Assembly (NCBI GenBank): GCA_008632985.1 | Contig: QPGO01000009.1 | Coordinates: forward strand, 496,001-560,000 | Direction: 5' to 3' | DNA: 64,000 bases | Origin: Psammoneis japonica | Lineage: Eukaryota | Shown: one piece after another, positions 14,401-64,000 of the stretch | Position numbering within the stretch: position 1 is the stretch's first letter | Layout of the letters: every line of letters starts with the position of its first letter | The notes under the pieces: model-generated | Told to the model about the DNA's origin: nothing | Databases searched by the model: none | What the model saw: only the letters and a program-made list of their open reading frames with translations | Translations under genes and position numbers: made by a program

Positions 14401-14950
14401 ACATGTGGGCCTCAGCTGGTTGACTGAATTGCCCCAGTCAACAGCTCCCAGTTTTCGAGAGTGGGCAGCAGCACAGCAGCTTTAATTGAAAGCAGCAGTT
14501 GCGCACATCTGAAAAAATGATTTGGAGTGCTGTGTGATGTCAGTGGGCGGGCTTTCATCAAATGGTTTTTGCCCACAAGACCAAACATTGCAAGCCCTCA
14601 AATGAAGTGTCTCAGGCTGGATTTCCCAAATTTCGCATGTTCCAGCCACCTCTGTTTTTGGTTGGAGAGTGCGCTTTCAGTTTTTGCATGCTTGCACCAA
14701 CTTGGAGTGTCCTTGAGCTCAATTCATTGCCTTTGACAGTTCACTTCTTGACTTTTTTGAGAAGCTCACATTCTGTTCGCATGGTGGCATTTGTCTTGTT
14801 TTGAAGAAGGCATCAGATTCTCGGCGTCCATCTTTTCATGACTTCCTGCCACAACAAAAAATTCTGTTCATGACGCTGGACACAAGCCCCGCAGACGACG
14901 ATTCAGCGCTGGACGGATGTCTGTCACAGTGTGTCATCATGATGCCACTC
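5420..14950. other. TpA- and CpG-depleted hypermutated domain; original content not identified
   Basis: About two dozen TA dinucleotides by eye in ~9.5 kb. The ORFs are almost Tyr-free and Cys/His-rich. No recognisable domain. Confidence 0.85.
8200..9410. repeat. Diverged tandem duplication within the hypermutated domain
   Basis: ttggttgattgccaaacacacctgttgc occurs at ~8242 and ~8860. gatcaaatgccacctcagcaatccct... occurs at ~8444 and ~9194, with similarity extending ~200 bp further. Confidence 0.85.
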
Positions 14951-23660: not shown

Positions 23661-23757
23661 GAAGATCGTCGCATCATCTTTTAGCGAAAAAGAATGAGGC
23701 AAAGATACAAAGTTAAACAGCATTTAGAACACACCGGCACATGATCATTTTAGTTTT

Positions 23758-27349: not shown

Positions 27350-29625
27350 GAAATGTTTGAAATCTACGTCTGATGTGCGTCCGCAAAGATCTGAGGACTA
27401 ACCAACGCGCGACAACACAACAACAATCAAATCAAAAAATCAAAGAACGAGAAACTTCACCATGACGCTCGCGATCGATTTGCCGCTCGTTTTTGGAAGA
27501 TTCGGCATGCCAGTACCGGTTCCGACATTTTTGAAAATATCTGATCCCACTAGAGGATAAGTTGTCGAAACCTGCCAGGCACCGAGAGCACACGAGTCGT
27601 GGAAGACGAGGACTGAGGCTCCGTGGATTTTACGTGCTTCTGGTACAAGAACAATCCGATGCAGAAATCTGTTCGCTCTTGATTTGCTCATAATTCTCAC
27701 AATCAACTCAAACAACACGGCAGTAAAATGGAGGAGTTGATTGTGTTTCTCTTTTGACCACGGCGCTCTTTGCGGTGGCCATGGGCGTTCTGCTTGCTGC
27801 CGGCTTTTGTCGTTGCAGAGTAAGGTACGTGCGTTATTGTCGTGATCGTGTATCGTGTTGTTCCTTTTTCTTTTGTATTTCATCCACTCAACTTGCTCTC
27901 GCCTTCTTGTACGTACACAGAGACAGAATTATCATTCACCGTGGTTGTGGGCAAGAAGCGGATACGTTGAGGTGCTCGTGTCTAGGTTGCGGCACGGTGG
28001 TCTGGGATCTTCAAGACGAGGCGATGTACTGATTGTGGTTTGGGATTGGATTCACCAAGAAGGACGTTTTAAAAAGTACAGCAGCAATGCGAGGCTACCC
28101 ATTAGGACTGAGCAGACGTGGCACTCAGTCTCCCAACAACGTTGGAATAAGAGACGGCCTCTTGTCAATTGCTCTACCCGAAGCAGTAGCAAAATCTCGT
28201 ACTTGACTTGTTGTGGCTTTTGCTGCCATGGGGCAGCGTGAACGTGGAAGCGGGGTTACTCATTAGGACTTGGATAGACGTGGCACTCAGTCTCGCAACC
28301 CGAGACGGCCTCTTGTCAATTATCCAGACTCGAAGCAGTAACGCGAACTCGCACACGAATTCACAGTACGGAATGTTTGATTGCGGGGCCACCTATTAGG
28401 GCATGGGTAAATGTGAAGGCTTCAGCCTCTCGTCAATTATTCATAGTCACGAAGCAGTGGCACAACAACTCGCACACATGTCCATTGGTTGGGAGAAGAA
28501 CGAATTTGCCGCAAAGGCAAGGTGGACGTTAGACGGGGCTACCTAATAGGGCATCGGCGGACCGGGCAATCAGCCTTTACCGATAGTCACGAAGCAGTAG
28601 CGCAACACTCGCCAACGTATTCACCAAGGGGGGCATTACGTCAGTCGTGGGGTTGCCTAGTAGGGCTACCTGTGTGGTAGTCTCGAAGCAGTAGCTAAAA
28701 CTCACCAGATGCCCCCACCTGTTCCACCAACAAGTCCTTCCGAAGAGGTGTTTGTTATGACACCCGGTGACCATGTCAGACCATATGAAGGCTAGTACTC
28801 GGAATGTTGATGACACAGTCGGTCCAAGAACTTTGCAATCTATCAGAGAACGCGCTTTCTCTGCGGTTTGCACCATGCGGTTCGCTTTTACGGCTCAAGA
28901 ATTCAGGCTCGCAGTACTGTAAGCCGAGGCCGTTTCGGACGTCACGTTGAAACAGAGAGGCGACATTGACGAAAGAGAATTCATTGACCACACTCTATTT
29001 CAGGCTCGCATTGCTATCATGTAAGTCGTGTCGCTTCGGAAGTCAAGCTTGTTGTTGAAACATTGACGGAAGAGAATAGAGCATTCATTGGGGGCAAGAT
29101 TTTCACAAGGCTCCCATTGAAAAAAAAAACAAAAACAAATCATACCTCTCTAGTAGAGAGACAATAAAAACACGTCTCACATAAAAGGAATAGAAAACAG
29201 AGTTCCTAAAACGTCCGCTTGCAATTCTATACAATACCTTAGTACTACTGCTAGCTCGCACATGAGCACTTCTACCGTATGAGGCGGTCGTCAGTCTTAA
29301 AGCAAGACGGGTAGCTATGTCGTAGGATATTCTGGTTGTATCCTTAACGTTGCGAAACCGAACGTGCATGGTGTGGACTAGATTTTTCTTTCAATTGTGG
29401 AGGTGGTGCGGATAGCTTATGGAAGATTTGAATCTTCTAGCGCGCGAATCATCTCCAATCCTTCCTTGCGATTGGCATACCGTACGGTTGACGATGGGCC
29501 AGAAGATGTCAAAGAACCGCATATCTACTGTATCCATTGACCTTATAGTATAATATTCAATATAGAGTTTGCCACCTGCCGCTGCTGTAATTGCAATCTC
29601 GCAAAGATCTCTTCGGGTGTCACAT
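27350..29625. repeat. Copy 2 of ~2.2 kb direct segmental duplication
   Basis: See copy 1. Paired ORFs in the track (e.g. 24264-24650 vs 27855-28241) are nearly identical. Confidence 0.95.
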
Positions 29626-33889: not shown

Positions 33890-35400
33890 ATGAACAATGA
33901 CAATGCGCGCTCTATTCTACACTGCGCCATTCTACGCCACACTGCAACACGACAACCCAAATCTGCAGAGAGCCAACGCAAGTTCTGCCAGTTGCAATCT
34001 AGACTTGGCAGCTGCAGTGGCGGTGCGCGGACTCCACATCCGTGTGGGTGAATGCCCACATGATGGCTGCAGCATGGCAGGCCACCTGGTCCTCACCCCA
34101 GAAAAGGCGTCCAAGCCAGCAGACAAAAGGTGTTGCACAAGATGGCTCTGCAGCAGCTCAGTTTGGTTCATCTCAGGGGCTCGGGGTGGGAGGAGCACCA
34201 GACCAACTTGAAAGTTGTCCCACAACCACTCATCCAAAATGTCGTTGTCACCAGCAACATGGATCTGTGCATTGTCACAAACAAGCACATCACAAGGCTT
34301 CAAAAAGCCCGGCACAATGGCCTTTTCAACTGCAATGGAAAAGTCCACAGAATCATTGGCATCTTGATTTAGACAGAAAAAGAACAGGTCGGCAGACTGG
34401 TCGACACCGCAGAAGCCAACAACATTGCAAACATTGCGAAAGTCAGAGTCCGTCGCAATGGATGGCATTTCTCCAGGGAGTGGATTGCGCCGGACTTTTT
34501 GGTTGAAAAGCTCTGTTCCTTTGAGAGATTTTTCATCAGTGAACTTGACATGCCTGTGGTCAAGTTGCACGATCAATCGAAGACATTCGGTGGCTCTTTC
34601 AACATTGTCGGGTCTGAGTTTGTCAACTGGGACCAAGTTTGGTTTCCTCAAAGCAGCAGAATGTGGAGAGCCACAAAGCAACGTGCGAGATGTTGCACTT
34701 TGTGATGCAAGTGTTCCAGCACAATGAAAGAGTTCCGTCTGGTGGCTTCTTGGCATTCAGGAAGGGTTCTCGTGATGAAGTGCGATCAAGCAAACAGCGT
34801 CGTCCGTGTCGAGCATCAGCGCTCCTGCCCCCCTGTGTCTCAAAGGCTTTTGATGGCAAGGATCAACGAGCCCCTCTTCACTCTGAAGCTCCACAATGAC
34901 CTTCTTGGCCCACTTGTCACTGACTTTCGCCACTCGTCCAAGCTCCACCCACGACGGCTCCCGATCCGCCCTCGTTGCGGTCACACAGCTCCTCGCACTT
35001 CTCCGCCAATTCTGTCTTCTTTGGGACATCGTAGGGAACACCATTTCGACATGCACCACCGTTTACATTGTGGGACAGTCCCAAGGCGGCGACGGCATGC
35101 GAAGAAATGCCGGCCACAGTGTCGTCCCCTTCAAAACAACACGAAAAAGAGCGCTTTGTGCAGACAATGCAAGAGTCTCGCTGACGAATTTGAAAGTTTT
35201 GAAGTGACAACATTGACGTTGACATAAAGCGACAAACGATGAAAGCCTTTGATGGAGCAAAAAGAAGGCCGCATTATGACAAAAGACGGCAAATGACCGC
35301 CATGGAGGCAGAATTCGCCCATTTTGCAACCAACCTCGAAGAAAAAATGTCGGAGCGTGACGCGGGAGCGGCGCGAAAAAAGTCGCTCGAACGGTTGCTA
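33890..35400 (-). mobile_element. IS630/Tc1-mariner superfamily DNA transposon remnant (DD38E transposase pseudogene, ~35225-33932)
   Basis: KFTDEK, VLVCDNAQIH and LPPRAPEMNQTE motifs with 38 residues between D2 and E. In-frame TGA at 34757-34759 and a frameshift near 34970. No Tyr in the 274-aa ORF. TIRs not identified. Confidence 0.85.
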
Positions 35401-35648: not shown

Positions 35649-37073
35649 ATGGCATTCTGTCGGCGCTACATATTGATTGCGGCTATTGTATTTGCTGTCC
35701 TACCCCAACCCGGTAAGGGTAGTCAAAACAATGTCCCAGATATTCAAGCAGACAAGGATTATCAGCCAAAGGTAACGATTATTGAGCCGCTGACACGCGT
35801 GTTTGGACCTACAATGATAATGCCAGAAGGATCGCCATGGTGTAATAATTCTAGAACGTATTGGTGGGTGGGTCATCAGAGACCAGAGATGCCCTATTGT
35901 GAGACAAGCGAAGGTGCATGGGAAGAAAGCAAGGTTGCTAGACTTGCGGATAAAGACGAAGTTGGCGGTAAAAAAGGTATTGATCGACACGGTTGTGGAG
36001 CCATGGATGTCAACAACGATGGGTTTCAGGATTTAATATGCACCATCGGAGCATCAAAGGGGAAGGGGGAGGGGCACAATGAAGTGTACATTACACAACC
36101 AGATGGATCACTTGAAAAGGTACTCAACCATGGTTTGTACGACGTGCCTTCCATGCGATCTCGGGATGCAATTCCTCTGAGAGGTGCAGACGGCTCAAAA
36201 CTTTTGCTAATTACAACCAACGGCCAATCACGATCGGATGGTCTTCCAAATTGGCACAGGGTATACAAAGTCATACCCAAAAAGAAGAATGGGCGGCTTT
36301 TCATGGAAGTTAGAAACAAGCATATCAACAAGGAAGTGGCGCTTTCGCGAGTGCTTGTGGCAGATTTCAACAATGACGGTGCTGATGATTTACTTTTCTG
36401 TCCTAGTAGAACCAATAATGGTTTATCAACCGTTCTCATACAGAGAAAGAACAAAAGGTTTGCTCCGTTTAAACTGCCTCGCTCCAGGAGGATGCGAAAC
36501 GCCCGTTTTGAAGACATGACAGGTGACGGTGTGCCGGATCTATTGGCTATTACTGAAGTGTCTCGCAAACCAACATTAAAGATATTCCAGGGATTGCGAC
36601 AGAAGCCGTATTTTGACATGCGTCGGCCTTTCTATGAGATATCGTTGCCGCATGCTGCTCCGGATTTGGAGGTTCTGGACGTGAATGGCGACGGAGTCAT
36701 GGACATTTATGTCATTCAAAGCAATGAGAAAGGCGCCTTTGAGGAGAATTACTGTGCTGGAAGGTTTGATTCAAGTCTGTACGTGAGATCCGAAGTACAA
36801 GTTGAAGGGTGGCTTCCACCAGTTGATCCAATGCCTGACCTTTTATTCATTGGGACGGAAACAAACCAAACGGGTTGGAATTCGTTCATAGTACACGCAA
36901 TGAATCATTCAGAAAGAGGATGTGGGACATTTTTGCACAAGCTCAGTCCATCTGAACTGGCATTGGCTCAGGGTACGCCATCTCGGCCGGGATCAAATCT
37001 TTTGTTGCGGTGGCCTGGTGAACCGAGCGGCGACGGTAGCAGCACCACAATGGTACACGACGGAGAGGAGTAA
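35649..37073 (+). CDS. Secreted FG-GAP/VCBS-repeat (beta-propeller) protein
   Basis: Hydrophobic N-terminal signal and four DxNxDG-type motifs (DVNNDGFQDL, DFNNDGADDLL, DMTGDGVPDLL, DVNGDGVMDIY). Intronless 474-aa ORF. Confidence 0.85.
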   Translation: MAFCRRYILIAAIVFAVLPQPGKGSQNNVPDIQADKDYQPKVTIIEPLTRVFGPTMIMPEGSPWCNNSRTYWWVGHQRPEMPYCETSEGAWEESKVARLADKDEVGGKKGIDRHGCGAMDVNNDGFQDLICTIGASKGKGEGHNEVYITQPDGSLEKVLNHGLYDVPSMRSRDAIPLRGADGSKLLLITTNGQSRSDGLPNWHRVYKVIPKKKNGRLFMEVRNKHINKEVALSRVLVADFNNDGADDLLFCPSRTNNGLSTVLIQRKNKRFAPFKLPRSRRMRNARFEDMTGDGVPDLLAITEVSRKPTLKIFQGLRQKPYFDMRRPFYEISLPHAAPDLEVLDVNGDGVMDIYVIQSNEKGAFEENYCAGRFDSSLYVRSEVQVEGWLPPVDPMPDLLFIGTETNQTGWNSFIVHAMNHSERGCGTFLHKLSPSELALAQGTPSRPGSNLLLRWPGEPSGDGSSTTMVHDGEE

Positions 37074-47133: not shown

Positions 47134-48444
47134 ATGATACGGGGTCGTTCTTGTGCTTATACTGCTGCGCTGATCTTGATATGCGTTGGATGTTATTCAG
47201 TAAGCAGCTTTGTGACTTTCCACCTTATCAGCACGGCGCGAAGCAAGAGTTGTCTCTCTGTTTCCAACAATGGGCGAGAAGAAACACTCTATGATATTTT
47301 GGGAGCTTCTCCCAATGACTCGCAACGCTGCTAAAGACTCGCTATACAGAACTGGCTAAGCTTACGCATCCAGACGCCAGTAACGGAGGAGATTCGGATC
47401 GATTCAGAAAGATTGCAGCAGCCTGGAGCGTGCTCGGAGACCCAAAGGAACGTTTGAGATACGACCGTAATCGTAAGGCCAAGGAATTTACCAGCAACAT
47501 GGAGAGCTTGCTCGATGTAGGTTCAAAAACGCTGTTCCCTTTATAAAGAAAACAGCAGATACAACCATTGCAGCCGTGGAGACTTCTAGCCGAACCGTAA
47601 AGGGCGTTTCCACTCAGCTCGGTCGAGCAAAAGATCGATTCGATTTGGATCAGAAATGTCGCGATTTGGAACAACAGTAAGAACTATGGCCTGTATCTGC
47701 ATAGTCCTATGACTATCTGGATGATTTGGTCCATCTTACCGTTTTTTTTCTCTCTCTCTTTCTCGTCAGAGCGTCGAGTCAGTTTGCACTCGCCAAAAAG
47801 TTCAAGTCACAGAGCGAAAACATTAACGATAAACGCCACAAGACACTTAGCAGCCCCGATTCCGTAATTACAGCGGTAGAGGCCCGTCGGCTCTTGGATG
47901 GCTTTGTATCAACAGAGAGAAAGATCTCGGTCAAATCGAAACCACAGGGCCCGGCAAACAAGGACATTCGATATCTTGACAAGGTGGAATCCGATTTCAC
48001 ACCAAGCAGGCCAAGTTGCAAGACGCGGAACGCCAGGTGGCCAAGGCACAGAAAAATGAAGAGGCAGCCCAAAAGGCACAAGCAGCAGCACAAGAACGGT
48101 TACGACAAGCCGAAAAGGAACTGGCTCAAGCAACCAAGGCGACGGAATCCTGCCAAACCACACATCAAAAGGCGGTTTCACTCCAAGAAAAATTCAGTCT
48201 AGAAGTAGACAAGGCGAATGGCGTCCTGGAAAAGCAACAAGAAAAGGTCCGGGCCGGCCTGATCAAGAAGGAGAGCGAGACTCTCCAAAGCGAAGCGGAG
48301 CATTTGAAAAAGAAGAGTGAAGTTGTAGAGCAAAAAGCAAAGGAGTTGGAGAACCAAGCGCAAGAAATGCGGATCCAATCAGAAAAGATGCACGCTGAGC
48401 ATCGGAAATTACAACAGAAAGAAAGAGGAAACGCAACAACTTAG
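47134..48444 (+). CDS. DnaJ-domain protein with C-terminal coiled coil, probably plastid-targeted; several apparent frameshifts and one intron (~47677-47769)
   Basis: TLYDILGA...LAKLTHPDA...FRKIAAAWSVLGDPKERLRYD (HPD motif). Signal peptide followed by SSF. Confidence 0.82.
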
Positions 48445-48899
48445 CAGCTAGCAAGTAATTTTAATACACAAATATACATGGAGAGGAAGCGCCAAGCTAT
48501 ACATTGTTGCCTTGTAGTCCGACACCTCCCTGTGGAGCTACCCTACACCAATAGACTCTCTTTCTTCAACTGCGTAAACAACAATAATGGTACGCGATAC
48601 GCGATGCCCGTCTTTTTCCAGAAGCGGTGGCAACTTATTCAGAAATACCAACTCCCCTTGCTCATGTTTTCCTGAGACTGAGACGCCCTCACTTCTTCTT
48701 CCATACCATTGAGCAAGAACGAGTGGTTGCAGCACTAGCGCTTTTTTCTTGATTCGGTAGAGAGGGCACGGTGTTGTTTTTGAAGAACCGTGAACTCGTG
48801 ACTCGTGAGTTCCTGGTGTCGGCATCGAAAAAAACATGGAACTTCCACGAGCCACTTGCAGGATGTGGGCTGCTTCTGAGAAAATTCAGAAATAATCAT

Positions 48900-51800
48900 C
48901 TCAAGCAATCCCCTGGTGACAGCACAAAGCAAGGGCATCAGGTGGTTTGGCTGCTTGCAGTCTAAGAGAGAGATTCCGGACCGTCATGTTCAATGTTGTG
49001 GCACAGTCTTTGGGTGACAGCAGCATCGCCGTGGGCTGCGTTGGCAAAATGGCAACCAATCGGCTTCCTCGCTCCCCATTTCTAGGTTCATAATCACCAA
49101 GGAGACGACTCTCATCCGATCCCATGAGTGGGTCAAACTTAAATTAAGCAACTTGCTTGTTGGCAAAACCCGGAGCTGGAGGTGCGATCTGGCTGTTGCT
49201 TGACACAAGAAACTGTGCAAAGGAGGAAACGGCACCCGCCAAGCGTCGATCGTGAATGCCAACAATCCCACTACAAACTTTTGGTCTGGTCGGTGATCAT
49301 CATCGAAGGGATTCATTGCCGCACACCACGGACAGGGTTCAAGGAATGCACCAACTTTGGATGGGACAACAGAGTGCGATTGGTCGCACTCAAAAGACTG
49401 CCACCATCGAGTTGCAGCCATGGGAGGAATCCAACCAAGCAATCATTTTCAACACATGCCCTTCAAGAGTGACGGCATTTGTGACACTCTCAAGTGCCGT
49501 GGCCATCCCTGCCCAGTCTCACGTCAATTTCCGTGAGCTGCCCAAAACCTTTGTCCACCGGCGGGCAATCCAATGCAACGACACGGAGCTCATTGTCTTC
49601 TTCAGCAATCGCAAAAAAGTTCCTCAGTGCCAAGCATCAACATTGTCGTTGACATTTTCCCATTCAATCCTGGACATGACAGAGGATGGCGTGCAGTTTG
49701 CAATGACATTGCTCTCCTCTCCACTGACATTTCCCACGCACACCAAGCTGCCCAGAATTGCACAAGTGAGAAAAGTGATCCCTGACAAGCCTTGAAAAAT
49801 GACACGCCACGCATGGGACAAACTGTGGTCAAAGTTGCCACAAAAGTGGGAGGTGGAACAAGTGCTCCAAAGAAAGGGGCACAAAATTGAATGACGTGCT
49901 TGTGCAAAAAGGGAGAAATTGACCAAGCATCCAACTGGGCATTCCAGACAGAGAGAGCACAAAGCATCAAACAAGAAAGAAACTCATGTCAAAGCCATGG
50001 CAGAGAATTCCAAGGAAGCCAAGACCAACAGGACCAAGGACGACATGGCTGGGATGGCAGAACTCATCAAGAGAGGTGTGCCACAAGTGGAGGCTCAAAA
50101 GCAGGCCTTTTTGGTCAATCCATCAATGGACATTGCCCAGTTGCAACTTCTGAGATTGTTGCAACTGTGGAAGAATCCATCTTGGCAAAGGTGAACAAAG
50201 TTGAGGCCAGAGAAATCAAAGAGAATTTTGAGATGCCAGAATCATTGAAAGAGATGCACAGCATGGATGATCAAGAGCAGTCAAAACCACAGGCTGAAGT
50301 TTCAACAGATGCTGTCAGAAATGAGGTGGAAGATTGCTCATTTCTCAATCAAGACAAAGCTTCAGTGTTCAATGCAAGCAAGCAGGAAACAATGACAAAG
50401 CCACCACCCATTTGTGTCATTTCATCTTCCAACATGCACCATGAAGCACCTCATCTTGAAGACTCCAAACCTGTTGCTGTGAAGGTTGTGGGTGGCACAG
50501 TGCCTGACTGTCACCCTCCTTTGATTTGCACACACAAGGTCAGTTGATTGACAGCTCATGCAAAGGAGTGCATTGGGGCACAAGGCATTTTCAGGAGGAG
50601 AGGCAGACAACATTGCAGCAAAAGATTGTCAGTGACATCTTGAACTCATGTTTGTAAATTCACAATGAGCACGGGTTTCATGACCACTTTTTTGGCTTCT
50701 GCTGCACCAGGGCAACATGGCGATGTGCAGCAACGGCATCAATGGCAGCATGGGAGATGTGTTTGCAGCCCACATTGTGAGTCTTGGAGTTGACAAGACT
50801 GGTGCAGACCAGCTGGCAAGCCTTGAAGTTCTGACACTGAATGGCACCTCTTGAGCCAGGTCCTGCTCATGGGATGGTGTGTCGACTCCTCATTTTGTGA
50901 CACTGCTGACAGCAACCTGTTGCAACACATCAACCCAGCACCAAACATTGCCACTGCAGAGCAGCTTGTGATGAGTGCCAGCACATCAAAGAACAATCCA
51001 ACACTGTCATGTGGCAACAACAAGTGCCGCGGTGCACAAAGTGCTCTGACCAAAATTTAAAAAAAAAGCTCAAAGAAGCCAAAGGCTCTGTGAGGGAATG
51101 CTGCCTTGTTGTGTCTCTGTGGTGAGAGATTCAGTGTGCCCATTTTGTCAAGTCTTTTGTTTGAATTTTCAACTCAGATTGTGGCACTTTCTCTGTGCAA
51201 AAAAATTTCCACGCAGCTTCAGCTCCTTTTCTGCTCTTCAGCACAAGAAATGATGTGCAAAGCACACCCAGTTCTTCTTGTGTGCACAGCACTTGGACAG
51301 ATTTTTGAGATGACAATGGGTCAAGTTGAGTCATCTGTCGCTTTTCACCAGCCTTCTCTTTCCAAGTTTTCTTGAAATGAGTTTGCACTCACAAAGGGTG
51401 TTCACTTTTTTTCTTGGTGCCGAGAAGTGTGGGGAGGCCTTGCAGCAGTGCTTTCAATTGGGGGGCCTGTGCAACTCTGTGCATGACTGCTTTCTTTCTC
51501 TCAACCCTGCGCTGTCTTCTCTGTGCTGTGTGTGTGTGTTTTTTTTTGTTGATGTTTCATCACAGGAAGTTCTTTTGCTTTTTCAAGCACATCATCGTTG
51601 GAGCACACGTGTTTTTTCCATGATTGTGTCACAAATGATCAAAACATTGGCCATTTTTGATGCTTTTTAAAAAAGCATTTGTCCAAAAAACAAGGGATTT
51701 TGCACCCCTTGATGTCATGTTTTAATTGTCACAATGTTGTGTGACACATGCACAGCATTCAAAAATCAAATGATCGTTGGGCCATCATCGCGACACTCTT

Positions 51801-54800
51801 GACCGTTGACGATGACAGGGTGCAGAGGTTGCACTGAATTCACTTTTCACCGCTGCGCATCATCTTTGCAGGAGAAACATGGACATGAATCCAAACTTAG
51901 ATTTGTTGTTAAGTCTGGTTCATGGGGAAAACACAGAAGACGTTCGTCGTGCACGTGCACTGCAAGCCGGCGCCGACCCAAACCATGCTGTGATTTGGAG
52001 TGATGATGTTGTTTTGTTGCCCATCCTGTTTTTTGCTGCCACTCCGATGCCAAGAAACCTCGATGCAAAATTGCAACTCTTGCTGGACGCTGGGGCACGC
52101 TTGAATGTTCGATGTGGACGCCATGGTTGGACCCCCTTGCACTGCGCGTGCGCTCTCGGGCGTGTGTCCTTGGTTTGGACAATCGTGTCAAACGGTTCGG
52201 AAATCAACGGAAGAGAAACCAGGCATGGTCACACGCCTCTGCATCTCGCCGCAATGAACGGACACGGTGATGTCTGTCGGTTTTTCTGCAGAACAATGCT
52301 GGTGTGGATTTGAAGTCACCAGGTGGCCTCACAGCTCTTCACATTGCTGTGAGCAGCTCGGGTCAAGAAAGCATTGTGAGACTGCTTTTGGAGCATGGAG
52401 CCAATGTGAGTGCCACAAGTGACAATGGAAACACGCCATTGCATTCTGCTGGCGGGCATGGCAGCGAAAGCATTGCAAGACTGCTGTCAGAGCACGGCAC
52501 TGATTTGAAGTCTAGAGCCCAGGATGGGTTGACACCATTGGACTGTTCCATCAAACATGGCAACCACGGTGCCACCTCTGCCTTGATGGAAGCACATGGG
52601 CAACAACTGTTGTTGCACGATGACATTCCGCCAGCACTCTGGGCCCATGTGTTGGCCAAGGTGGGGAGCAGGAGCACAGATGTGTCCAGAGTGGGCCTTG
52701 TTTTCTCTTTGCTTTGTGAGAAGCCGGATCTTGCTTGGTGGCTTTGTTGCATTTGCTGTTCAAAGATGCATTGGGAGCAGCCATTCTTTGTCCAATGCAC
52801 TGGAAACCACACATCCGCCCATCGTTCTGCTGGCAACAGATTTGCTGTCTACTTTTCTTTCATCTCTGAGGAACATTGAAAGCCAAACAGCACTGCCTGC
52901 ATCCTCTGGAGAGCAATGATGAGGCTGACCACCAAAAACCAACGCACTGCATCCAAGCAAGCATCGCCTTGATCCAATTGGGCCTGGCCTCAATGCGCTG
53001 GGGCTAGACCTGCATCCTTTCTACTGTGCAGCCACAGCCAGGGAGGGCGGAGCAGTGGCAGTGGTGTTTCAAGTGTGCGGTGTGCACCAGGTTCATTGCA
53101 GCATTGTGTTTTGTGGCAAGCACATGCAGGCCGTCAAGACTCACTCTTTCATCAAGACTGTGTCGACACCACGCGTGCAATGCTCGTGACAATTCGTCAC
53201 TGGTTCAACAACAAAATTGCCATGATCAAAAGTGTGTTGATGTCCCATTTCCAATTGCATGGCTTGAGAAACGTGTTGGATGGGTGCCATGGTCCATCCC
53301 TTGACATTGGCAATCTCTCAAAGACAGTGTCATTGTTGTTGGTAAAAAGCAGAGGATTGCCAAAGGCAAGACTGGCTTGTGTCGTGCCCCGTTTCCAAGG
53401 TTGGATCAAGGAAGAGAGCGGAGCCACACTGTCATCATTGTCCTTCTTGTCGTCACAATGATCCGTCATCAAGACGTCCTTGTTGACCCAATGTCATGTG
53501 GGAATGTGTGTTTTCCAACAACTGGACATTGCGATTCTGTCCAGTCCACGGATGCACAACATTTTGATTGGACTCCAATTCAATTTGATCTTGAGGAGTG
53601 TCGCACGGAGTGAATCGATTTTTGATCAAGCTTCCAACAAAACGCTTCACCACTGCCATGACAGTGGCGACCCTGTGGATGCCATGGACTGCTTGCAAAG
53701 GAACCAAAGACGTGGTCCCATCCAAGGTTTTTCAATGGCAAGAATTGGTTCATGCCGAACCACGAATGTGTGACAGCAGACATCGCACGCGACACTCCAT
53801 TGCACAGTGGCGAGCATTTGAGCCAATGATTGTCTTGTTGAATGCAAAAGGGCAATTGATGCGCACGGAGTGTGTCCATCATTGGTGGTGACAGGACGTG
53901 TGGGGCAACCCGTGTCGGGCACGTGCATCACCAAAATGACAGACAACAGGTGATGTCATGCTTTTTTCTTTTTCTTTTGAATCTTTGTCTTGCAGTGCTT
54001 GTTTTTGATTTTCTTGTTGTTTCATTCCAAAGAGCTTGTCAAGCAAGATGGTTGTCCGTTCTTCTTGTTGTTTCTGCGGTGCTTCTCCTTGGAGAGAATG
54101 CGCAGAGGATGGTGGCGGTTTGGGTGCATGCTCGAGCCATGCATGCTGTTTCCTTTTGAAAGGATGGCCCCCTCTTGACTCAATTTGGGTCGAGAAAAAG
54201 TCTGGGCTGCTGTCGCAGTGGGTTGACAAACTCGGCTCTGCTTTCATTGTCGTCATCACAAAGTGGATCGCTGCTTTGTGCGAGCTGCTGCCACCACACA
54301 AGACTCTGTAAACAGCGACAGCATCACGCATCAACATCTCACAGATTGAAGATCAAAGATGACATGATGTGTCATTCAACACAGGCATCGCCAATCTAAT
54401 CGAAATCGCGGGCATTTTTTTACCTGGTGTGGGCAGCAGGTTTTGATCAACTCGACTCGAGCGAAGCGAGAGTTGCAAAAGTGACCCGGATGTTAAAGTG
54501 GGGAGAACAAACAACTCTGCACAAGCACCCATCACCAAAGGCATCTCCTCTCAAAAGGACAAGGAACAACATTTGAAGCAAAGTGCAACATGCAGACAAG
54601 GAGCTTGTGCCAAAACAGAGTGTCTGGCCACAGCACCAGTGGCTGCAACAAAAGGCAAAGCAAGAACAAGCAAAAAAGAGGCAGCGCCAGAGGAGGAGGG
54701 GCAAGAGCAGGGGTGCAGAGAGGAGAGTGGTGTGTGCTGTGCACTGAAGAGCTGGGTGGAAGGGGTGAACAAAATGCCAAAAAGGGAAAATTGTGAGACT

Positions 54801-55920
54801 GCATTGGGTGCCAAAAGCAAGCAGCAGTTGAGAGATGTTCTGCAGCGTGTTTTGTGCTGTGACCCAGCAGCAAGAGAGCTGGCTGCTGCCCCCCAGCTGG
54901 CCCCAGCCAAGAAGGCCGAAGGTTGTCCGCAGCCAAGCAGCACCCCACAAAGTGTTTTCAATGCCATTTTGGGGTGTGTGACAGCTGCGCCAGTTGAGAT
55001 TTGCCTCACAATTTGGTGTGAAACAAAGTGTGGCGTGCAGACAAGGAGAGAGTTTGTGCAGAACCAGTGTGTCCAGCTGCAGCTCTGATGGCTGCAAGAG
55101 GCAAAGCAAAAGATGCCAGGATGGCACCACATGCCAGCTCTCACAGAGAGCCCTGCTGCAGGCTGCATCTTAAAGAAACAGGTGGAAGGGATGAACAAGA
55201 TGCCAAAAGAGAGACTTGTGAGACGGCTTTGGGTGCCAAAAGCACAAGCAGCTGAGATGCTCTGCACAGCACAACCCAGCAAGAGCTCATTGCCACAACA
55301 GCAAGCCAGCTGAGAAACTCTGCATGTTGTCCATGACCAAGCAACACCTTGCAAACTGCAAAGTGTTCTCAGCACCACTTTGGGGTTTGGCCCAGTTGTT
55401 GTTGAGAGCTGCCTCACAAAAAACTGCTGCTTTGGTGCTTGTTGCAGATCTGGAAAATCATCTCTTTGCAGCTTTGGCAAGGAGCTCTCCAGCATGATGA
55501 TCATGAACAAAAGCAGCAACAGCAGCAGCAGCAGCAAAAAGCAGTGCTGTGTGTTGGAGCAGCAAGAAGCCAGAGTAACAACAAAAAGAAAAGACAAAAA
55601 GTGCAGACAAGTTCACAGGTGTGCAGCATCTGAGGTGGCCAGAAATGATCTCCAGCACATGCCAAAGCCAAAGCCCAAGGTGGGCAGCAGCAGAAAGCAG
55701 AATCAGGGCAAGGAAACAAAGGCTTGCTTTTGTGAGGATGGCATGAGCAAAGTCAAGAAGCCACAGCGCCAAGCTTTTCGGATGAATTGCACAATTTTTG
55801 TTAAGAAATCAAAAACAAACGGGAAAATCGGCGAAAGCGTCATTGAGACATCATGCCGTAAAGTGAGACACCGGCGGCACGCATCATTGTGGTGCTGCAG
55901 TTTGTTGCGTGGTGCCTGCG
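48900..55920. other. TpA-depleted hypermutated domain (CpG loss variable)
   Basis: TA nearly absent. CpG is retained at ~49000-49600, 51800-52300 and 55750-55920, and lost in the cores. Includes an internal repeat (~54760 vs ~55185). Confidence 0.85.
51879..52750 (+). pseudogene. Ankyrin-repeat gene remnant, hypermutated
   Basis: GWTPLHCAC, GHTPLHLAAMNGH, GLTALHIA, GNTPLHSA, GLTPLDC. Frameshift near 52290. No Tyr in the ankyrin region. Confidence 0.85.
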
Positions 55921-56012
55921 AAGCATACATATTCATCGATGTATGTCGGTAATCCAAACTGAAAATTGACCCATTACCTTTCTGTCTTTCTTCATAATTG
56001 TGGATGTCACTT

Positions 56013-56112
56013 TATAGCGTACATAGGGGAGATTTGTAGCGTACATAGAGGCAGAATGACCCTATAACGTCAGCAGCTCTCTATGTACGCTATAAACTTT
56101 ATAGCGTACATA
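56013..56112. repeat. Cluster of an 11-bp motif TAGCGTACATA (three direct copies, one inverted)
   Basis: Direct copies near 56015, 56037 and 56102; inverted ctatgtacgcta at 56081-56092. Confidence 0.85.
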
Positions 56113-56529
56113 TTATTTCCACGAGCATTGTATTGCTAACGAATCCAAATAATTTTATTTCTATATTTGACCGTAAATGCAGTGTTTATTATTTTCATAA
56201 ATAAAATCCGTGAGACATGAAGACACGTCGGACATTTTCCTACTTAGGTTGATGACATCATCTATCACTATTTTAATTAAGCCTTCGACGCCAAACGAGG
56301 CCGGTGTCAGGCAGTTCCGACGCACGCCTACCCAGAAAGACCCTTATGACGTCATTTATGACGCAAGTTAAACTCACACTAAATGTTCGAATAAAAGTTA
56401 CCTAAATGCAATTGTCACGTTTCTTCGCCAATAAAGTCTAACGAACAAGCAATCGTCCGGGACAACAAATGACAAACACTAGATCGGTGACTCCTGTAGC
56501 CCCTCAATTTTAACAATGCAGCACAATTT

Positions 56530-59500
56530 ACAGCAAAAGTGTTGTGTCATGTACAGCATGTGCGTGTCGATGGAAATCACGACAAAGATCATTTGTTGCC
56601 TCACACAAAGACTTTTGCCGAAGTCGTCAAGAGCTCAAAAACCAAAACTCCAAAACCAGCAAACGAAAAACGCTTGGCCACAGCGCTGAAGATTGCAGCG
56701 GCATTCCGAGTTTGGGTTCGAGATGATTGCTTTGATTGAGCCCAGCACATGCCATTTAAATTGTGTCAAAACCAACTTTGCACTTGACTGACACGATTGC
56801 CTTCCCGCGAAAATTTGAACGATGAAAGCACGCACTTGGCCACACACTTTCGTCATCTCACAATCGCAGCTCTGGCAAGAAAGCAAAGTGTCGCATCAAC
56901 AATGTCACCATGTTGTGCACTTTCATCTTCTTGAGTGCCTTGTTTCTCTTTGATGAATCTGGCCGAACCATGGATGAGTTCAGCCCAGTTGGCGCAATTT
57001 GCTGGTTCCTCGTGTTTCTCTTTTTGAGAGAAGTCAACGTCTGGTTGTTCGCGGTTTTTTGCCTCATCTGTCTCTTTCTGGTCTTCAAGGAGCAATGCCA
57101 GATGCACCTTTGCGACAAGGGCTGGACCACCACTTTGACCTTTGAAGACAACAAGCCATTTTTGTCGCAAGTTCTCCATTGCTCTTGTTTGAACTGCCTG
57201 TTGCGACGCCATGTGTTTCTGATGTCCCGTTCGTTCTTTTGTTTTTCTCGCATTCAGCCCTGATTGTGGCATTGGTTGGAACGACAACGTCAAAGTTTTG
57301 CCAAGCCCTCCCATGCACCAGCTCAGCTCTGCTCACTGTGATGGTTGCACGTGGCAGAGCTTTCCGAACGTCAAGTTGAATTCTGTCTGGTCGTCCATCG
57401 TCAGATCTCCCATCTGGAGCCCAGTCTATCTCTTCTTCGTCAAGTTCAAGAAATTCTTGCTGAAGTGTGTGGGTCTCGTCATTGGCATGTCCAAGGGATG
57501 CATCAAGCGTGTCGACTTTGCGAGTGCTGCAGCTGTCTTGAAGTGCTTCGATTTGACTGCTGTTGTTGTCGTGTTTCACTTCGGCATTGCTTTCAAGAAT
57601 TTTGATGTCAGCAGCCTCATGGGATTTCTCTTCCGTCTCATGTTGGTGGCAGCACTGGCCTTTCTCATTCACGTGCATGCGACGGGATTGTGCTTGCCAT
57701 CAACCGAGGACGATCTGTCTGGCCATCGCAACGACCATGTCAAGAAACCTTGTTGGAAGGAGCCAACGTCCAAATTCAAGAAGGGACAGCACGTGCATTG
57801 TTGCCATTCGAACGAGACATTCAGGGCAAAGATTTTGAAGGTTTGCTTCAACGACGACTTTGTCCCATGCTGCGACGTGAAATTGGGCGATGAACGCGAG
57901 AAGCAGACGACCGATGACCACCTTTCGGACAAGCTGGGGTCGGGTCACTTTTGATTTTTCAGTGACATCTTTGACGACCATCCGGATTGCGACTTGTGAG
58001 GTTCTCAATGGGGAGGGGAGGGGACATCGTTGTTGCAGTCTTGTGACGATTGTCATTCCAACAAGATGTTCGACTGGGGAGAATTGCCGAGCATTTTTAT
58101 GGGGGTGCGGCTGTGACTTGCAGTTCTGGCTCGCTTTTTCGAAAAGCAGGCCTTTGCTGTCAAAATGAGAGGTGCAACCATTGAAGTGCTTTGTGAAGGA
58201 CACTTTGATTGATCACGTTGGGTCTTGAATTCAAGCTTGTGTTGGATGCACAGGGCCCTGTGTGCCTCGAGCTGATTCCGAAGCATGTCTTTGTTTTTGA
58301 ACAACATGTGATCGAGAACAAGAGATCCATGTGTCATTCAAACTCACACTCATTTTATGGACATGTAAATTGAGTTGTTTCTGAAACAAAATCCGAAAGA
58401 GGCGCCTTCTTTTTGAAAGCAGAGTCAAGTGGAAAAGGAAAATTGAAGCCAAGGAAACACTGCTCGAGACGAGAAACGCATGGAGACACTTTTTTCTGTT
58501 CTGGTTCAGTTGGGTGATCTGTCATTGCTTTCATTCGATCAAGATGAGCAGAGTCTTGTAAAATGCAAACATGAAATAAAAATGAAAATTTGATCAACAC
58601 TTCTCCATCTCGTTGTGAACCAGTTTTAATGGCACCATTCGTCATTCGTGTCGCAATCGATCAATCGAAGGCTGAGGACGCCACCACGGCATCGGCAGAC
58701 CAGCGCGGCACCCATTTGCTGCGGACTGGTTCCTTCTCAACAATGGGGTCCGTCTCAAGCACAAGAACAGCAGTGCAGTCTATCCTGACAAATTGACACT
58801 GCGACAGCCACCATCTGCTGCCAGTTGTAAAAAACAAAGTGAAGCCCTCCCGAGAACGAAGTTGTCTGATGTCCGACCGAAACAAGGTTGGGTGGAATGC
58901 CGGGCATGTCACTCGCAACTTCAGCACACTGAACATGGTTCGACAACACTGCCAAGTGTCGAGTGTCAGATCATTGCAGTCACAGAGTTCAGAGTGGAAG
59001 GCCTCCGGTGAGTTCAAATCACAAAAATCACCGGACGATGGACGACGGACGGAAAACATGGGCGATTTCCAAAGAAAACAGGCGCACTTTCAAAAATTCG
59101 GTGTGCACACCCAATCCACACAAAATGTGCGTACGTAAAAATGCACTGCAAAATTCGTAGAGATGTTCATTTGAACTCACTTCACACACAAACATCACGG
59201 CAATGATGCCGCGACATCGGCAATGGACGCACACAACAACGACAGCGGACTGGGAGGTTGTGATGCACCGAGACAACAACTGATGTGATGAGAAATGAGA
59301 CATCAATGTCAAATGACAATGATCAAGTTGTTTTGGGAGCTGGTTGAGCCATTGGTGACGAAGGGTTTTTGGCACGTGCAACTTGGCACTGAAATCACGC
59401 AGAGGTTTTGGCCACGGTGGGACTGTTGTTTTTCACTTTTTTTGGGTGCATTTTGTGTTTTCTTGGTCGATCGCATTGACGAAGCACTGAAGTGAGCACG

Positions 59501-59650
59501 AGACAACAGATTTTGATGAAAAGTTGGATTTTCATTCATTGTGGAGGATTGGCACGGGGTTTTTAACACGGTGAAGCACGGGGGGGCGATTTTTTTCACC
59601 AGATTTGCAAGATCCTGCATCCCATCCAATTCGCGTGCGCAACACCAGTG
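56530..59650. other. TpA-depleted but CpG-rich domain with unidentified coding remnants, including a small SH3/Tudor-like motif at ~57772-57933 (+)
   Basis: TA rare while CG is frequent. KFKKGQHVHCC..AKILKVCFNDDFVPCCDVKLGDEREKQT resembles a 'DD..PYY.I.L.DGREKQT' motif I recall from diatom proteins, with Y->C/H. Confidence 0.7.
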
Positions 59651-60013
59651 GATTCATGTACTTTTTATACGCAAGAAGCGCAATGATGTCGATGTACCCG
59701 ACATGATAGACTTCCCGTGCTGTTGTCGTAATGAGTGAAATCTTGTTGTGTTCGGTGCGTAGAGTCTAGCACTGTTTGTCCGTATGTAGACGAGTGCTGC
59801 GCACCGCACTTTTGGAAAGTACGCCACTCCATTATTTCCTTATTTCCTTGGCAGGAGGAGCGCGTCGCGCGTGCGGTTCAAGGAAGTTAGACGGGACTGA
59901 TTCAGTCACGTGCTCATCATTCCTCAAAACAGCACACACCATGAGAATCGGAGCGGCCTATTAGACTAATTCCGATCCTTTCAACAATACCAACGCTTTC
60001 TACTAGTCTTTAC

Positions 60014-60760: not shown

Positions 60761-61374
60761 CGTAACAAAGAGCCGCCAGGAAAGGAGTTAAGAACAGCAC
60801 GATCTCGATTAATAAGACATGAGAAGTACATGAGAAGTGAAAAACGCGATAGTCTGGACATCGATTTACTACTTTCACGAATGACGGAATACCCATCACA
60901 CACGCATCAGACACTCAAAAAAGAACAATTGAGCAAATCTTTTGGTTTTCTCGATGTATTTTCTCACGCCGTATTCTCTCAATCACAAGACTCAATCATA
61001 ACTCACTCTTACATTCAACGACAAGACACGGCGTGCCATGGTAGCGGTACATGCATGCATGCATCATCATTGTGAAAACACACTTGCAGGCAACACCAGT
61101 TGCTGTCAGCTGTCAGTCTTCTTTCCAAAATTTTCCGTCAACGCTTCGCGTGTCTCATCGCGCTCGTTGGATCTTGGATCTTGAATTTTCAAGTCTGTAT
61201 GCAACTGCTGCCGACGGACGAAGGCAGGACACCCATAGGCTCCCCTATGGGACGGACCGGACACCAGTGCTCTCGACCGTGCGTGCGCGCGTGCGCGCGG
61301 TGACTGGCGTCCCTGAACAAAGAACAAACCCATGCTGGATGCTGGATGCATCAGACGATGATGGCTATTGTACC

Positions 61375-62046
61375 ATGACGAGAGCTCACTTCTTATCATC
61401 AGTCCTTTTATTGGTCATTATGCCAAGGTGCCGTGTCGCTGGATTCTCCGCTCCTTCGTCCCCTCGAGCAACACTGGAAGATTACACTCACTTTCATGGC
61501 ATGCTTTGCAATCCGTGGACAGCAAGACGATGCATTCGAAGTTTCACCGGAAATGTCCTTCTCATACCGAAAGGCAACCATACCACAGAGGATCTGGAGA
61601 GATATGATTTTTCCGATGGAGCGCTGTCTCTGGTAACATATTATCTGCTTGTTTTGATTAGCATGACTGGCCTGTGCAGTTTGTTTCGATTGAATCAGTT
61701 TCTTGTGGCAAAGGAAAATGGCATGATGCAACCCCGTGTCGATCAGAGTGAGGTTGCTGCATCTTTTGACAAGGAGCTTGTTATAGATACAACTATCATG
61801 GACTATTGCAAAGCCAAGAGTCATTCAAAATACCTTTATCTCAAGCGCCAATTTGAATACAATGCACGATTATTGGGCTTGTCCGTAATGATGGTGCATC
61901 TTGAGTGTGACAATAGTAAGTTGCACTTGGTAGAAGTGTATCGGTTCAAGAATGTTATTATCAGGAGATTCTTTGGTGGACTGGGTAGTATCGTGGGATT
62001 TGTTCTGCACAAAGTACGAAGCATGAAAAGGTTAGTGTCGAGGTAA
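61375..62046 (+). CDS. Hypothetical protein with signal peptide + AGF (possible plastid targeting)
   Basis: Open frame with normal composition and a hydrophobic N-terminus. No recognisable domain. Confidence 0.45.
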   Translation: MTRAHFLSSVLLLVIMPRCRVAGFSAPSSPRATLEDYTHFHGMLCNPWTARRCIRSFTGNVLLIPKGNHTTEDLERYDFSDGALSLVTYYLLVLISMTGLCSLFRLNQFLVAKENGMMQPRVDQSEVAASFDKELVIDTTIMDYCKAKSHSKYLYLKRQFEYNARLLGLSVMMVHLECDNSKLHLVEVYRFKNVIIRRFFGGLGSIVGFVLHKVRSMKRLVSR

Positions 62047-62301
62047 CAGCGAGTACTGTATGCCAAAACATGGACTGTACTTTGCCGGTATAACAAAACT
62101 AAGGTAGAGGTAAATTCTTTTCACATTTTGGTGGTTAGCATTAGAGACGAATGAAGCTTCGGATCTAGGAGATCAAAGGTTTCTATAGAAAAGTATGAGA
62201 TGTCAGATGTCAACCGCACGGTGTGTCACATAAGGAAAATAAAAGCACACGTTTCTCGGTGTTCGCCCTCTCCTTATGGTCGTACCGTTCTTGGTAGAAG
62301 T

Positions 62302-62612
62302 ATCTTGAACCCAATCGTCGTTGACATCCATGGCTCCACAGCTGTGTCGATTAATGCTTTTTCCTCTTCCTTATCTGCATGTCTAGCGATCTTGCTTTCA
62401 TCCCATGCACCTTCCCGCGTCTCACAATAGGGCATCTCTGGTTTGGTTTCTGATGACCAACCCACCAATATGTTCTAGCATTATCACACCATGGCGATCC
62501 TTCTAGCATAATCATGGTAGGTCCAAGCACGCGTGTTAGCGACTCAACAACCGTTACCTTTGGCTAGTAATCCTTGTCTGCTTGTATCTGGAACATTTTG
62601 ACTACCCTTACC
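62302..62612 (-). pseudogene. Partial, inverted, degenerate copy of the 5' part of the FG-GAP gene at 35649
   Basis: IQADKDY*, LTRVLGPTMIM, PEMPYCETREGAWDESKIARHADK and GAMDVN match ~35710-36035. Confidence 0.9.
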
Positions 62613-62965
62613 AAGTTGGGCAGCAAATACATATCCTCAGTGCGGAGGTAACCAGCAAAGCTAAGAGCTTTATCTTTCAGTCGGCCATCTGCTGTTCCAC
62701 CACGGACGCCAGGAAAGTCGAGAGGTGTACTATTTTCCCTTTCTTGGTTTTTGTTCTCCTTCATCGTGTACCGGTACGAAGTTTGACTTTCTCAGGAATT
62801 CTTCTCTCCTACGGTGAGCTTACGCAGATTCGTTCGCTAGAGAGCTAAGCCAGATTTTGACGCCTGCGGTAGTTCCTTCCATGGGTCCCTCCTTTCATAT
62901 CGACGGGTTCTAACAATAGCCTTGGCTCAAAAATCGTGGCCTGCTTCCATAGTGCGCCCAACAGC

Positions 62966-63602
62966 TGTCATGTATCCTACCCAAAGTGCGAGCTACATAA
63001 ATAGATGAGATGCCGTCATACTGCCTGACGGTTACGGTACCGGTAAGCCTCTTTACCATCTCGCTCGCTCAGTGGGCACTTTAATGTCTTAACCATTGAA
63101 TCAACTAGTACATCGCCTACGTGGACATATCACCACACGCGACATCCTCCTTACTAGTGACTTCAATGTTCTTCGTTCAACGGAGATCGATTCAGATTTC
63201 TTCGATACTCCTCGTTCCTTTGTCAAGTCGGTTCCCCTGAGATTCCTGATTCCTAGGTCAGAGAATCGGTCTGTACACCGCTCCTTCTCATCCCTTCGAA
63301 CAGAAAGTCTCTTTCGAGTTTCGAACCTTCGACCTCTTTGACCTCACCGCCAATCGGAACTTTCAGCTGCGAAGACCTCGTCTTGCATCCGCTGTGTCAA
63401 GTAGCTATGTAGGTATCTCACCATGTCATGTATCCTACCCAAAGTGCGAGCTACATAAATAGATGAGATGCCGTCATACTGCCTGACGGTTACGGTGCCG
63501 GTAAGCCTCTTTACCATCTCGCTCGCTCAGTGGGCACTTTAATGTCTTAACCATTGAATCAACTAGTGCATCGCCTACGTGGACATGTCACCACACGCGA
63601 CA
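62966..63602 (-). mobile_element. Non-autonomous miniature LTR retroelement (TRIM-like)
   Basis: 179-bp TG...CA direct repeats at 62966-63144 and 63424-63602 around a 279-bp non-coding interior. 6-bp TSD AACAGC (62960-62965 and 63603-63608). On the minus strand, a TGG-starting PBS-like sequence (TGGTGAGATACC) follows one LTR and a purine tract AAGGAGGA precedes the other. Confidence 0.9.
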
Positions 63603-63608
63603 AACAGC

Positions 63609-64000
63609 AGCGAATCATGGCTACACAGTGCAGCTTTGAAATCATCTGGCAGAGGAGCGGTGATGCTGGGCAACCCATCCAACTCCAAACAGAGACAGTG
63701 GAGTCCGAGTCGATTCAACCCCAGTCGTTGCCGCCACCATCGATTGACTTTGGAATCTCCATGAGCAGTGTCACCAATCACAGGTTGTCCCATTCTTTGT
63801 GCGTGGCGGCGAATCTGATGTGTCCGTCCTCCCAATGCGGGTTCCACCAACACTGCACAAGACGAACCAAAAGTTTCACCATCCTTGCCAGTTGCAGCAC
63901 AATGAGATGAAATGACAGCAAACTTCGTCTTGGCTTCCTTTTCGATCCCATGAATGTTGAGTGGTGCATCAACGACGCAGAACGCTTCATCGTGACGCGA
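63609..64000 (-). pseudogene. RluA/TruC-family pseudouridine synthase C-terminal part, interrupted by the TRIM; 3' remainder at ~62830-62959
   Basis: GRTHQIRRH...PVIGDTAHGD...RLGLHCL. The frame continues across the TSD as LLGALWKQATIFEPRLLLEPVD. Confidence 0.82.

Follow-up and report, generated by a model that had tools for sequence, protein, structure and literature searches.

Loss of TpA dinucleotides on one side of a TRIM-like LTR retroelement inserted in a pseudouridine synthase gene of a diatom-type genome

In Neurospora and other fungi, repeat-induced point mutation (RIP) changes C to T mainly at CpA and so creates TpA; it needs duplicated sequence and leaks into flanking unique DNA. 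A system acting on TpA itself has been described in Bigelowiella natans, where mutation-accumulation lines showed A-to-G and T-to-C changes, all of them at TpA (Mettrop et al., bioRxiv 10.64898/2026.01.13.699255). These changes arose ∼1000 times faster than background and were restricted to two targets, an integrated giant virus and a virophage. The B. natans genome also carries clusters that are poor in TpA and rich in CpA and TpG, and the authors propose an ADAT2-like adenine deaminase; the main text of the preprint is silent on diatoms, on loss of CpG and on wider sequence context, and its supplements may hold data on context (10.64898/2026.01.13.699255). Our full-text literature searches returned no report of TpA hypermutation in diatoms, with the B. 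natans preprint as the sole close precedent. Here we analyse 64,000 nt of Psammoneis japonica (assembly GCA_008632985.1, contig QPGO01000009.1, positions 496,001 to 560,000; 'the window'), in which a long terminal repeat (LTR) retroelement resembling a terminal-repeat retrotransposon in miniature (TRIM) splits a pseudouridine synthase gene, and the gene part on one side of it has lost nearly all its TA dinucleotides.

The features of the locus, numbered from the first letter of the window, are as follows.

62845..62965, minus strand: C-terminal tail (last 39 codons and TAG stop) of a TruC/RluA-type pseudouridine synthase, within window frame 62845-62967; TA normal
62960..62965: left copy of the target-site duplication (AACAGC); with the element and one copy (643 bp) removed, the reading frame is restored
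62966..63144, minus strand: 3′ LTR (left copy), TA at 63038/39, 63109/10 and 63128/29
63145..63423, minus strand: internal region, 279 bp, non-coding, with purine tract and primer-binding-like site
63424..63602, minus strand: 5′ LTR (right copy), TG at 63496/97, 63567/68 and 63586/87
63603..63608: right copy of the target-site duplication (AACAGC), recognized by sequence and frame restoration
63603..64000, minus strand: more upstream portion of that coding sequence (132 codons visible before it leaves the window); TA-purged, CpG-normal

The right-flank frame is the C-terminal half of a pseudouridine synthase and is open at the window end, 64000. Among 612 candidates it has 50 homologs at E ≤ 0.001 (best 6.3e-28), all listed with PF00849; those with names are diatom proteins, some annotated as tRNA pseudouridine65 synthase or pseudouridine synthase C. 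The right-flank protein, when aligned with 14 homologs, retains all 25 invariant columns, and the homologs extend ∼45 residues beyond the point where its frame enters the LTR. When the element and one AACAGC are excised in silico, the frame proceeds into the left flank and reaches the TAG 39 codons on; this tail matches the C-terminal consensus of the aligned homologs. The restored frame and the matching tail thus place the insertion within the pseudouridine synthase gene, 39 codons before its stop. A reading of the HG of the GD..HG motif as a Tyr-to-His change via TA to CA was dropped, the H being invariant in the family alignment.

The element itself is bounded by direct repeats at 62966-63144 and 63424-63602 (179 nt each, 98% identical, 458 nt apart), the sole such family in the region. 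Both copies open with TG and close with CA, they agree at 176 of 179 positions, and identity ceases at both repeat ends. The whole element, 637 bp, is flanked on either side by AACAGC, a perfect 6-bp target-site duplication. On the minus strand a purine tract (63145-63152) adjoins the left LTR and a TGG-initiated primer-binding-like site (63412-63423) the right one, the window holding no tRNA gene for comparison; because of the placement of these two sites we read the element on the minus strand, with the right copy as 5′ LTR and the left copy as 3′ LTR. In the 279-bp interior the longest stop-to-stop frames, 80–82 amino acids, give no family signal. Judged by its sequence, this is a TRIM-like non-autonomous LTR retroelement, and the first-pass annotation, which had taken the repeats for the LTR pair of such an element, was right on this point, given the TG..CA ends, the 6-bp duplication and the non-coding 637 bp.

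Expected TA counts were obtained by simulating synonymous codon choice with the protein fixed and codon usage taken from five intact frames of the window. The right coding part (132 codons) holds 1 TA against 12.2±2.9 expected, and 1 or fewer was reached in 0 of 20 000 simulations; the left coding part (39 codons) holds 5 TAs against 4.6±1.6 expected. Over 63603-64000 the observed/expected ratio is 0.04 for TA (1 TA), 0.80 for CG, 1.60 for TG and 1.57 for CA, and from 63623 to 64000 a 378-bp run without TA extends to the window end. The stretch beside the right LTR is therefore truly TA-purged, as had been claimed. The TAs closest to the element are at 62950, 16 bp to its left, and at 63622, 20 bp to its right. 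The boundary of the TA purge coincides with the element, and just the gene part on the 5′-LTR side is purged.

Within the right coding part TAs are missing from codon positions 2-3 (0 versus 4.8 expected) and from codon boundaries (1 versus 7.4). TG is raised at codon positions 2-3 (15 versus 10.9 expected); at codon boundaries, T|G, the non-synonymous class, stands at 22 versus 15.7 expected (P = 0.022) and C|A, the synonymous class, at 12 versus 6.0 (P = 0.0098). The non-synonymous class is thus inflated as much as the synonymous one, with the strands affected about equally, and this fits neutral change in a gene already broken. A rule based on the transcribed strand (R-loop) was unsupported, the coding-strand excess of ∼10 TG being similar to the excess of ∼8 CA. 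At the other purge edges in the window there are on average ∼300 bp of partial depletion before TA becomes normal; a short tail reaching into the LTR would therefore be typical of such edges.

Such a tail may be what the two LTRs record. Base by base, they differ at exactly 3 of 179 positions, the left copy reading TA and the right copy TG each time:

63039A/63497G: GGTACCG versus GGTGCCG
63110A/63568G: AGTACAT versus AGTGCAT
63129A/63587G: CATATCA versus CATGTCA

The first-pass annotation had described the pair as differing at these three positions only and as having no changed CpG, and both descriptions are exact: there are 11 CpGs in each LTR and 0 have changed. Their distances from the right-hand edge of the right LTR are 106, 35 and 16 bp. 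While the adjoining 398 bp lost ∼11 of 12 TAs, the 179 bp of the LTR pair show 0 differences outside TA, an indirect hint of a rate far above background. As background we used four TA-normal paralog pairs of the window, where 21 of 175 substitutions are exchanges between TA and TG or CA (11/85, 2/12, 7/38 and 1/40 in the individual pairs) and the remainder comprises 69 transversions or gap-adjacent changes, 33 of CpG type and 51 other transitions. Against this background the probability that all three differences are TA/TG is ∼0.0017, and a further factor of 0.25 applies for all TA alleles lying in one copy. The changed sites are shifted toward the purged side (rank test, 31 of 560 subsets, P = 0.055), a positional trend that is only suggestive.

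The neighbouring bases influence which TAs are lost. Relative retention, defined as TA in purged DNA (26,010 bp) against normal DNA (31,766 bp) for each pair of flanking bases, is:

TTAA: 0.36
CTAA/TTAG: 0.16
GTAA/TTAC: 0.10
CTAG: 0.08
ATAG/CTAT: 0.04
ATAA/TTAT: 0.03
CTAC/GTAG: 0.02
GTAC: 0.012
ATAC/GTAT: 0
ATAT: 0

By hand calculation, these values follow if the base 5′ of T on either strand contributes additively (A > G > C > T). TA between a 5′ purine and a 3′ pyrimidine (R-TA-Y) is purged best and TTAA least; in the LTR, the contexts that differ are GTAC (twice) and ATAT. Of the 16 TAs in the LTR, five are R-TA-Y sites, and it is the three closest to the purged gene that have changed, the two most distant being intact. 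All three changes fall in this class with a probability of 10/560. The class was defined after inspection of the data, so the match in the LTR supports the idea and is no independent test of it.

We consider it probable, with some reserve, that a regional TpA-specific A:T-to-G:C hypermutation of DNA acted after the insertion and faded out ∼100 bp into the adjacent LTR. In this sequence of events the 637-bp TRIM-like element would have inserted on the minus strand, with a 6-bp duplication, into the pseudouridine synthase gene 39 codons before its stop. Afterwards a regional DNA-level process would have turned nearly every TpA of the upstream gene part into TpG or CpA, on both strands, and would have halted at the element, hitting just the three most susceptible R-TA-Y sites in the first ∼106 bp of the 5′ LTR. 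The chemistry would be an A:T-to-G:C transition confined to TpA, for which enzymatic deamination of adenine in DNA, as proposed for B. natans, would be the likeliest cause; targeting may be to a domain defined by chromatin or by transcription, and loss of CpG may be a separate process, later or slower. That the purge followed the insertion is suggested by a boundary that coincides with the element and by the neutral look of the changes in the gene. A change from TA to TG, rather than the reverse, is favoured because the same process demonstrably operates next door, because the intact CpGs argue against decay of methyl-cytosine in the left copy, and because the sites match the contexts preferred by the purge and the side on which it lies.

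The first-pass annotation had read the three differences as support for the direction, specificity and recency of the process. The contrast in TA between the two parts of the split gene, and the susceptible contexts lying nearest the purged side, strengthen that reading, with the direction its indirect part. Its suggestion that the process spreads from the adjacent domain agrees with a boundary that coincides with the element, and rests within the LTR on 3 events and the P-value of 0.055.

The purged gene part belongs to a pattern that covers ∼26 of the 64 kb of the window. Purged DNA holds 58 TAs in 26,010 bp (2.2 per kb), versus 1302 in 31,766 bp (41 per kb) of normal DNA; its observed/expected ratios are 0.01–0.1 for TA and 1.6–2.1 for TG/CA, and its G+C content is ∼46–54%. 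There are 41 TA-free runs of at least 250 bp, falling into about eight kb-scale domains with normal DNA around them. The near TA-free stretches are:

1-3971
4205-4679
5437-7034
8150-14950
20301-22947
34001-35031
49273-55575
56758-59563
63623 to the window end

These fall into two classes. In one, TA alone is purged (34001-35031, 56758-59563, 63623 to the end and much of 51–54 kb), and in the other both TA and CpG are gone (5928-14330, 20525-22405 and 50042-50671). The two classes suggest that TpA is lost first and that loss of CpG is subsequent or separate.

Paralogs within the window bear on the direction of change in the domains. When unpurged 26075-26444 is compared with purged 21448-21918, its 18 TAs are matched by TG in seven cases, CA in three, TA in one and something else in seven; its 23 CGs are matched by TG in eight cases, CA in 11 and another dinucleotide or a gap in four. 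The tandem copies 2851-3591 and 3594-4750 (purged and less purged, respectively) show nine double differences between TG and CA. We take each of these doubles as the independent resolution of one ancestral dinucleotide, and the purge therefore happened in place, on chromosomal DNA and after the duplication. By the unpurged paralogs and by the expectation from codon usage, a direction from A/T to G/C holds for the domains. As natural experiments, both paralog pairs exceed the LTR pair in size. A further duplication, 23757-26013 and 27349-29625 (2.3 kb, 94.7% identical), lies in TA-normal DNA. In the last ∼250 bp of its second copy TG or CA stands at six TA sites and three CG sites of the first copy, the reverse occurring once each; this end may be a small patch of partial purge away from any large domain.

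A retroelement makes its two LTRs from one and the same set of template segments, and an edit in the template shows in both. Editing at the RNA level (ADAR-type) fixed by retrotransposition was rejected, since the LTRs differ and since a host gene that was never retro-copied and a transposase remnant (see below) are purged too; the independent TG and CA outcomes in the tandem copies also count against it. Fungal RIP was rejected as well, the TA and TG/CA ratios of the purged DNA being the opposite of its outcome.

Coding remnants in the purged domains were sought with a Pfam scan that took in 150 of the 151 frames of at least 90 amino acids, all but 63551-63907 (plus strand). Only ankyrin repeats, in two frames, scored above the curated cut-offs, and there were three other weak matches below them. 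The two ankyrin-repeat frames adjoin each other at 51816-52876 (plus strand; E 6.5e-14 and 2.2e-22) within a TA-purged domain and are a second host-like coding sequence caught in the purge. A DDE_3 transposase remnant is found in the minus-strand frame 33935-34756 (E 2.4e-6; 27.9 bits versus the cut-off of 28.6); terminal inverted repeats were looked for around it and not found. The patch that holds this remnant, 34001-35031, is 1 kb long with a single TA and fairly normal CpG. For a 353-amino-acid frame in purged DNA (54554-55612) no relatives were detectable. Outside these matters, a stretch to the left of the broken gene (62302-62631, minus strand) is an inverted copy, 82% identical, of 35687-36032 (plus strand), which is part of an FG-GAP repeat gene at 35649-37073, and for a 668-amino-acid ABC transporter frame in the window the top relatives with names come from pennate diatoms (∼55–61% identity).

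Contigs of public sequencing runs give some view of copy number and of the assembly. In run X1 the summed contig depth is 814 in the bin of the element against 55–113 in unique flank bins, a summed depth not being a copy number; from these sequences the family would seem to be multi-copy. A variant with a 5-bp deletion at 63033 accounts for a depth of 536 of 786 in that run. The five bases at 63033-63038 are thus absent from the dominant variant and present in both LTRs here, so that the present copy would belong to a minority subfamily. blastn found no second copy in the 64-kb window, a scan of metagenome contigs with two degenerate LTR/primer-site patterns gave 0 matches, and an Rfam search of the element gave nothing above chance. 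In the same run 54180-56239 and 59330-59844, both purged, resemble high-copy repeats, with summed contig depths of 1200–2000 versus ∼55–60 in unique flanks. A rule by which repeats trigger the purge, as in RIP, was not supported: the apparently multi-copy element and high-depth 59845-60359 are TA-normal, whereas low-depth 49–52 kb is purged.

A 2986-nt X1 contig, whose depth (60.6) is that of the unique flanks, reproduces the purged stretch 49111-52089 with 14 other letters and nine gaps; the purge pattern is therefore present in the reads of that run. An X2 contig covering 61370-62967, as far as the edge of the LTR, agrees with the reference throughout (0 other letters, 0 gaps), and run X3 yielded no contig that matched the window. 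Where X1 contigs differ from the reference at 48127-52089 and 60923-62489, they do so mostly by small gaps (e.g. five gaps and 0 other letters in 950 nt), a pattern that hints at residual indel errors in the assembly.

Several observations weigh against hypermutation after insertion. One TA, at 63622, has survived between the LTR and the purged run, and the purged side is visible for 398 bp only, up to the window end. The order of events leans on the coincidence of boundary and element. The LTR changes are just three in number, with the positional trend at P = 0.055 and the R-TA-Y class set post hoc; context alone fits either direction about equally (0.039 versus 0.036). The element is apparently multi-copy and yet unpurged, so repeat status fails to explain the targeting, and variants of other copies could have entered the assembly. 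Runs X1–X3, finally, come from one sample, possibly the source of the assembly itself, and do not amount to independent support.

The alternative that survives best, though we think it unlikely, is that the purge predates the insertion: the element would have landed at, or been targeted to, the edge of a purged domain, and the LTR differences would reflect later low-level activity of the process. Silent chromatin and its vicinity are frequent integration sites of LTR elements, several domains of the window are clearly old, having lost CpG too, and graded edges are common in it. Without the element, however, nothing marks a spot 39 codons before the stop, and the boundary lies within 16–20 bp of the element on both sides. 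Moreover, the CpG content of the purged part is normal (0.80), the mark of a young purge, and the non-synonymous excess of T|G fits change after the gene was broken.

The polarity of the LTR changes could also be reversed, with TG ancestral and three G-to-A changes (C-to-T at CpA) in the left copy, caused by mutation biased from GC to AT, by deamination of methylcytosine outside CpG or by a RIP-like conversion of CpA to TpA. In most genomes no class of change is more frequent than G:C-to-A:T transitions, and the local context suits this direction about equally, with TG or CA holding 29 of the 88 G/C sites (cubed, 0.036). The background of B. natans, too, is AT-biased (2.65-fold; 10.64898/2026.01.13.699255). 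We nevertheless judge such a reversal, and each of these causes for it, quite unlikely. Methyl-driven deamination should strike CpG first, and 0 of 11 CpGs (22 cytosines) changed; the window has no TA-enriched, TG/CA-poor stretch of the kind that RIP leaves; and the new TAs would have come by accident to occupy contexts preferred by the purge, at the three such sites nearest the purged gene. A weak hint in the same sense is that the dominant variant with the 5-bp deletion has, among the differences listed, no other letter at 63039.

An artefact of assembly or polishing, in which one LTR took on variants from copies elsewhere (perhaps purged ones) or the two LTRs mix haplotypes, is given some room by the depth of the element in run X1 and by the prevalence of small gaps among the differences between reference and contigs (5 in 950 nt, 9 in 2986 nt), which suggests a long-read assembly with residual errors. 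We hold it to be very unlikely: the X2 contig is perfect up to the LTR edge, an artefact fails to explain three variants that are all TA/TG, all in one copy and clustered toward the purged side, and the one-sided purge of the gene is independent of the LTR calls. Finally, three ordinary substitutions that merely happened to be TA/TG deserve hardly any credence, given the probabilities above and the fact that this is the sole LTR-like pair in the window and so left no choice among pairs, even with three events only and a hypothesis formed on the same window.

Hypermutation acting after the insertion thus keeps its place as the probable account, and the locus can be set beside the systems already described. 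As a mobile element it resembles a TRIM in its short LTRs (179 bp), its short non-coding interior (279 bp) and its primer-binding-like and purine-tract sites, and likewise in its target duplication, its position inside a gene and its apparently multi-copy family; the primer-binding site is known here from its TGG start alone. With RIP the locus shares regional, dinucleotide-specific transition hypermutation in place that disables mobile DNA and fades across the edge of its target. It differs in that TpA is destroyed and TpG and CpA are created, the reverse of RIP, and in that the near single-copy stretch 49111-52089 is purged and the apparently multi-copy element is not. In the footprints of APOBEC and ADAR in vertebrate LTR retrotransposons, retroelement copies likewise record clustered, context-specific changes made by deaminases (Knisbacher and Levanon 2015, PMC4866542). 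Such edits are made on cDNA or RNA before integration, and here the target is chromosomal DNA.

If the process is as we propose, a neighbouring gene fragment loses ∼11 of 12 TpAs while the LTRs otherwise stay identical, and the locus offers a datable, sharp boundary in an insertion-split gene that is purged on one side. Differences between LTRs set against their distance to purged domains could measure its direction, rate and spread genome-wide without experiment. The preference for flanking bases, R-TA-Y best and TTAA least, would constrain any candidate enzyme. The locus would also add evidence that loss of TpA precedes loss of CpG and that host genes can be struck. In practical terms, homology searches would miss genes and mobile elements that lie in purged domains, and analyses of diatom genomes that rely on composition would be distorted.

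The nearest likeness is to B. natans. As far as the preprint describes them, the changes there too run almost exclusively from TpA to TpG or CpA, in kb-scale regions and far above the background rate, and DDE-endonuclease domains are enriched in its TpA-poor coding sequences, as a DDE_3 remnant lies in a TA-purged patch here. The organism there is a chlorarachniophyte (Rhizaria) and the evidence comes directly from mutation accumulation; here the genes are of diatom type and the evidence is a footprint in the sequence. The reported targets there are viral, whereas here most of the purged DNA is unidentifiable, the exceptions being ankyrin repeats, a transposase remnant and the host gene that the retroelement disrupted. 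Depletion is near-total here (58 TA in 26 kb), compared with a Rho of 0.45 for the viral region of B. natans, and many of the domains here have lost CpG as well. On this comparison a diatom-type genome seems to have undergone a process of that kind, here more complete, reaching a host gene and preferring R-TA-Y. It would extend TpA-specific A-to-G hypermutation of DNA to a second lineage of the Stramenopiles–Alveolates–Rhizaria (SAR) supergroup. More tentatively, and with the balance slightly against so broad a claim, diatoms may possess, like B. natans, a fast DNA-editing defence that erases TpA (R-TA-Y) in marked domains, in place and on both strands, and for which an insertion can set the edge or trigger the marking; if so, the system would be ancient and broadly distributed in SAR, with LTR pairs as its clocks.

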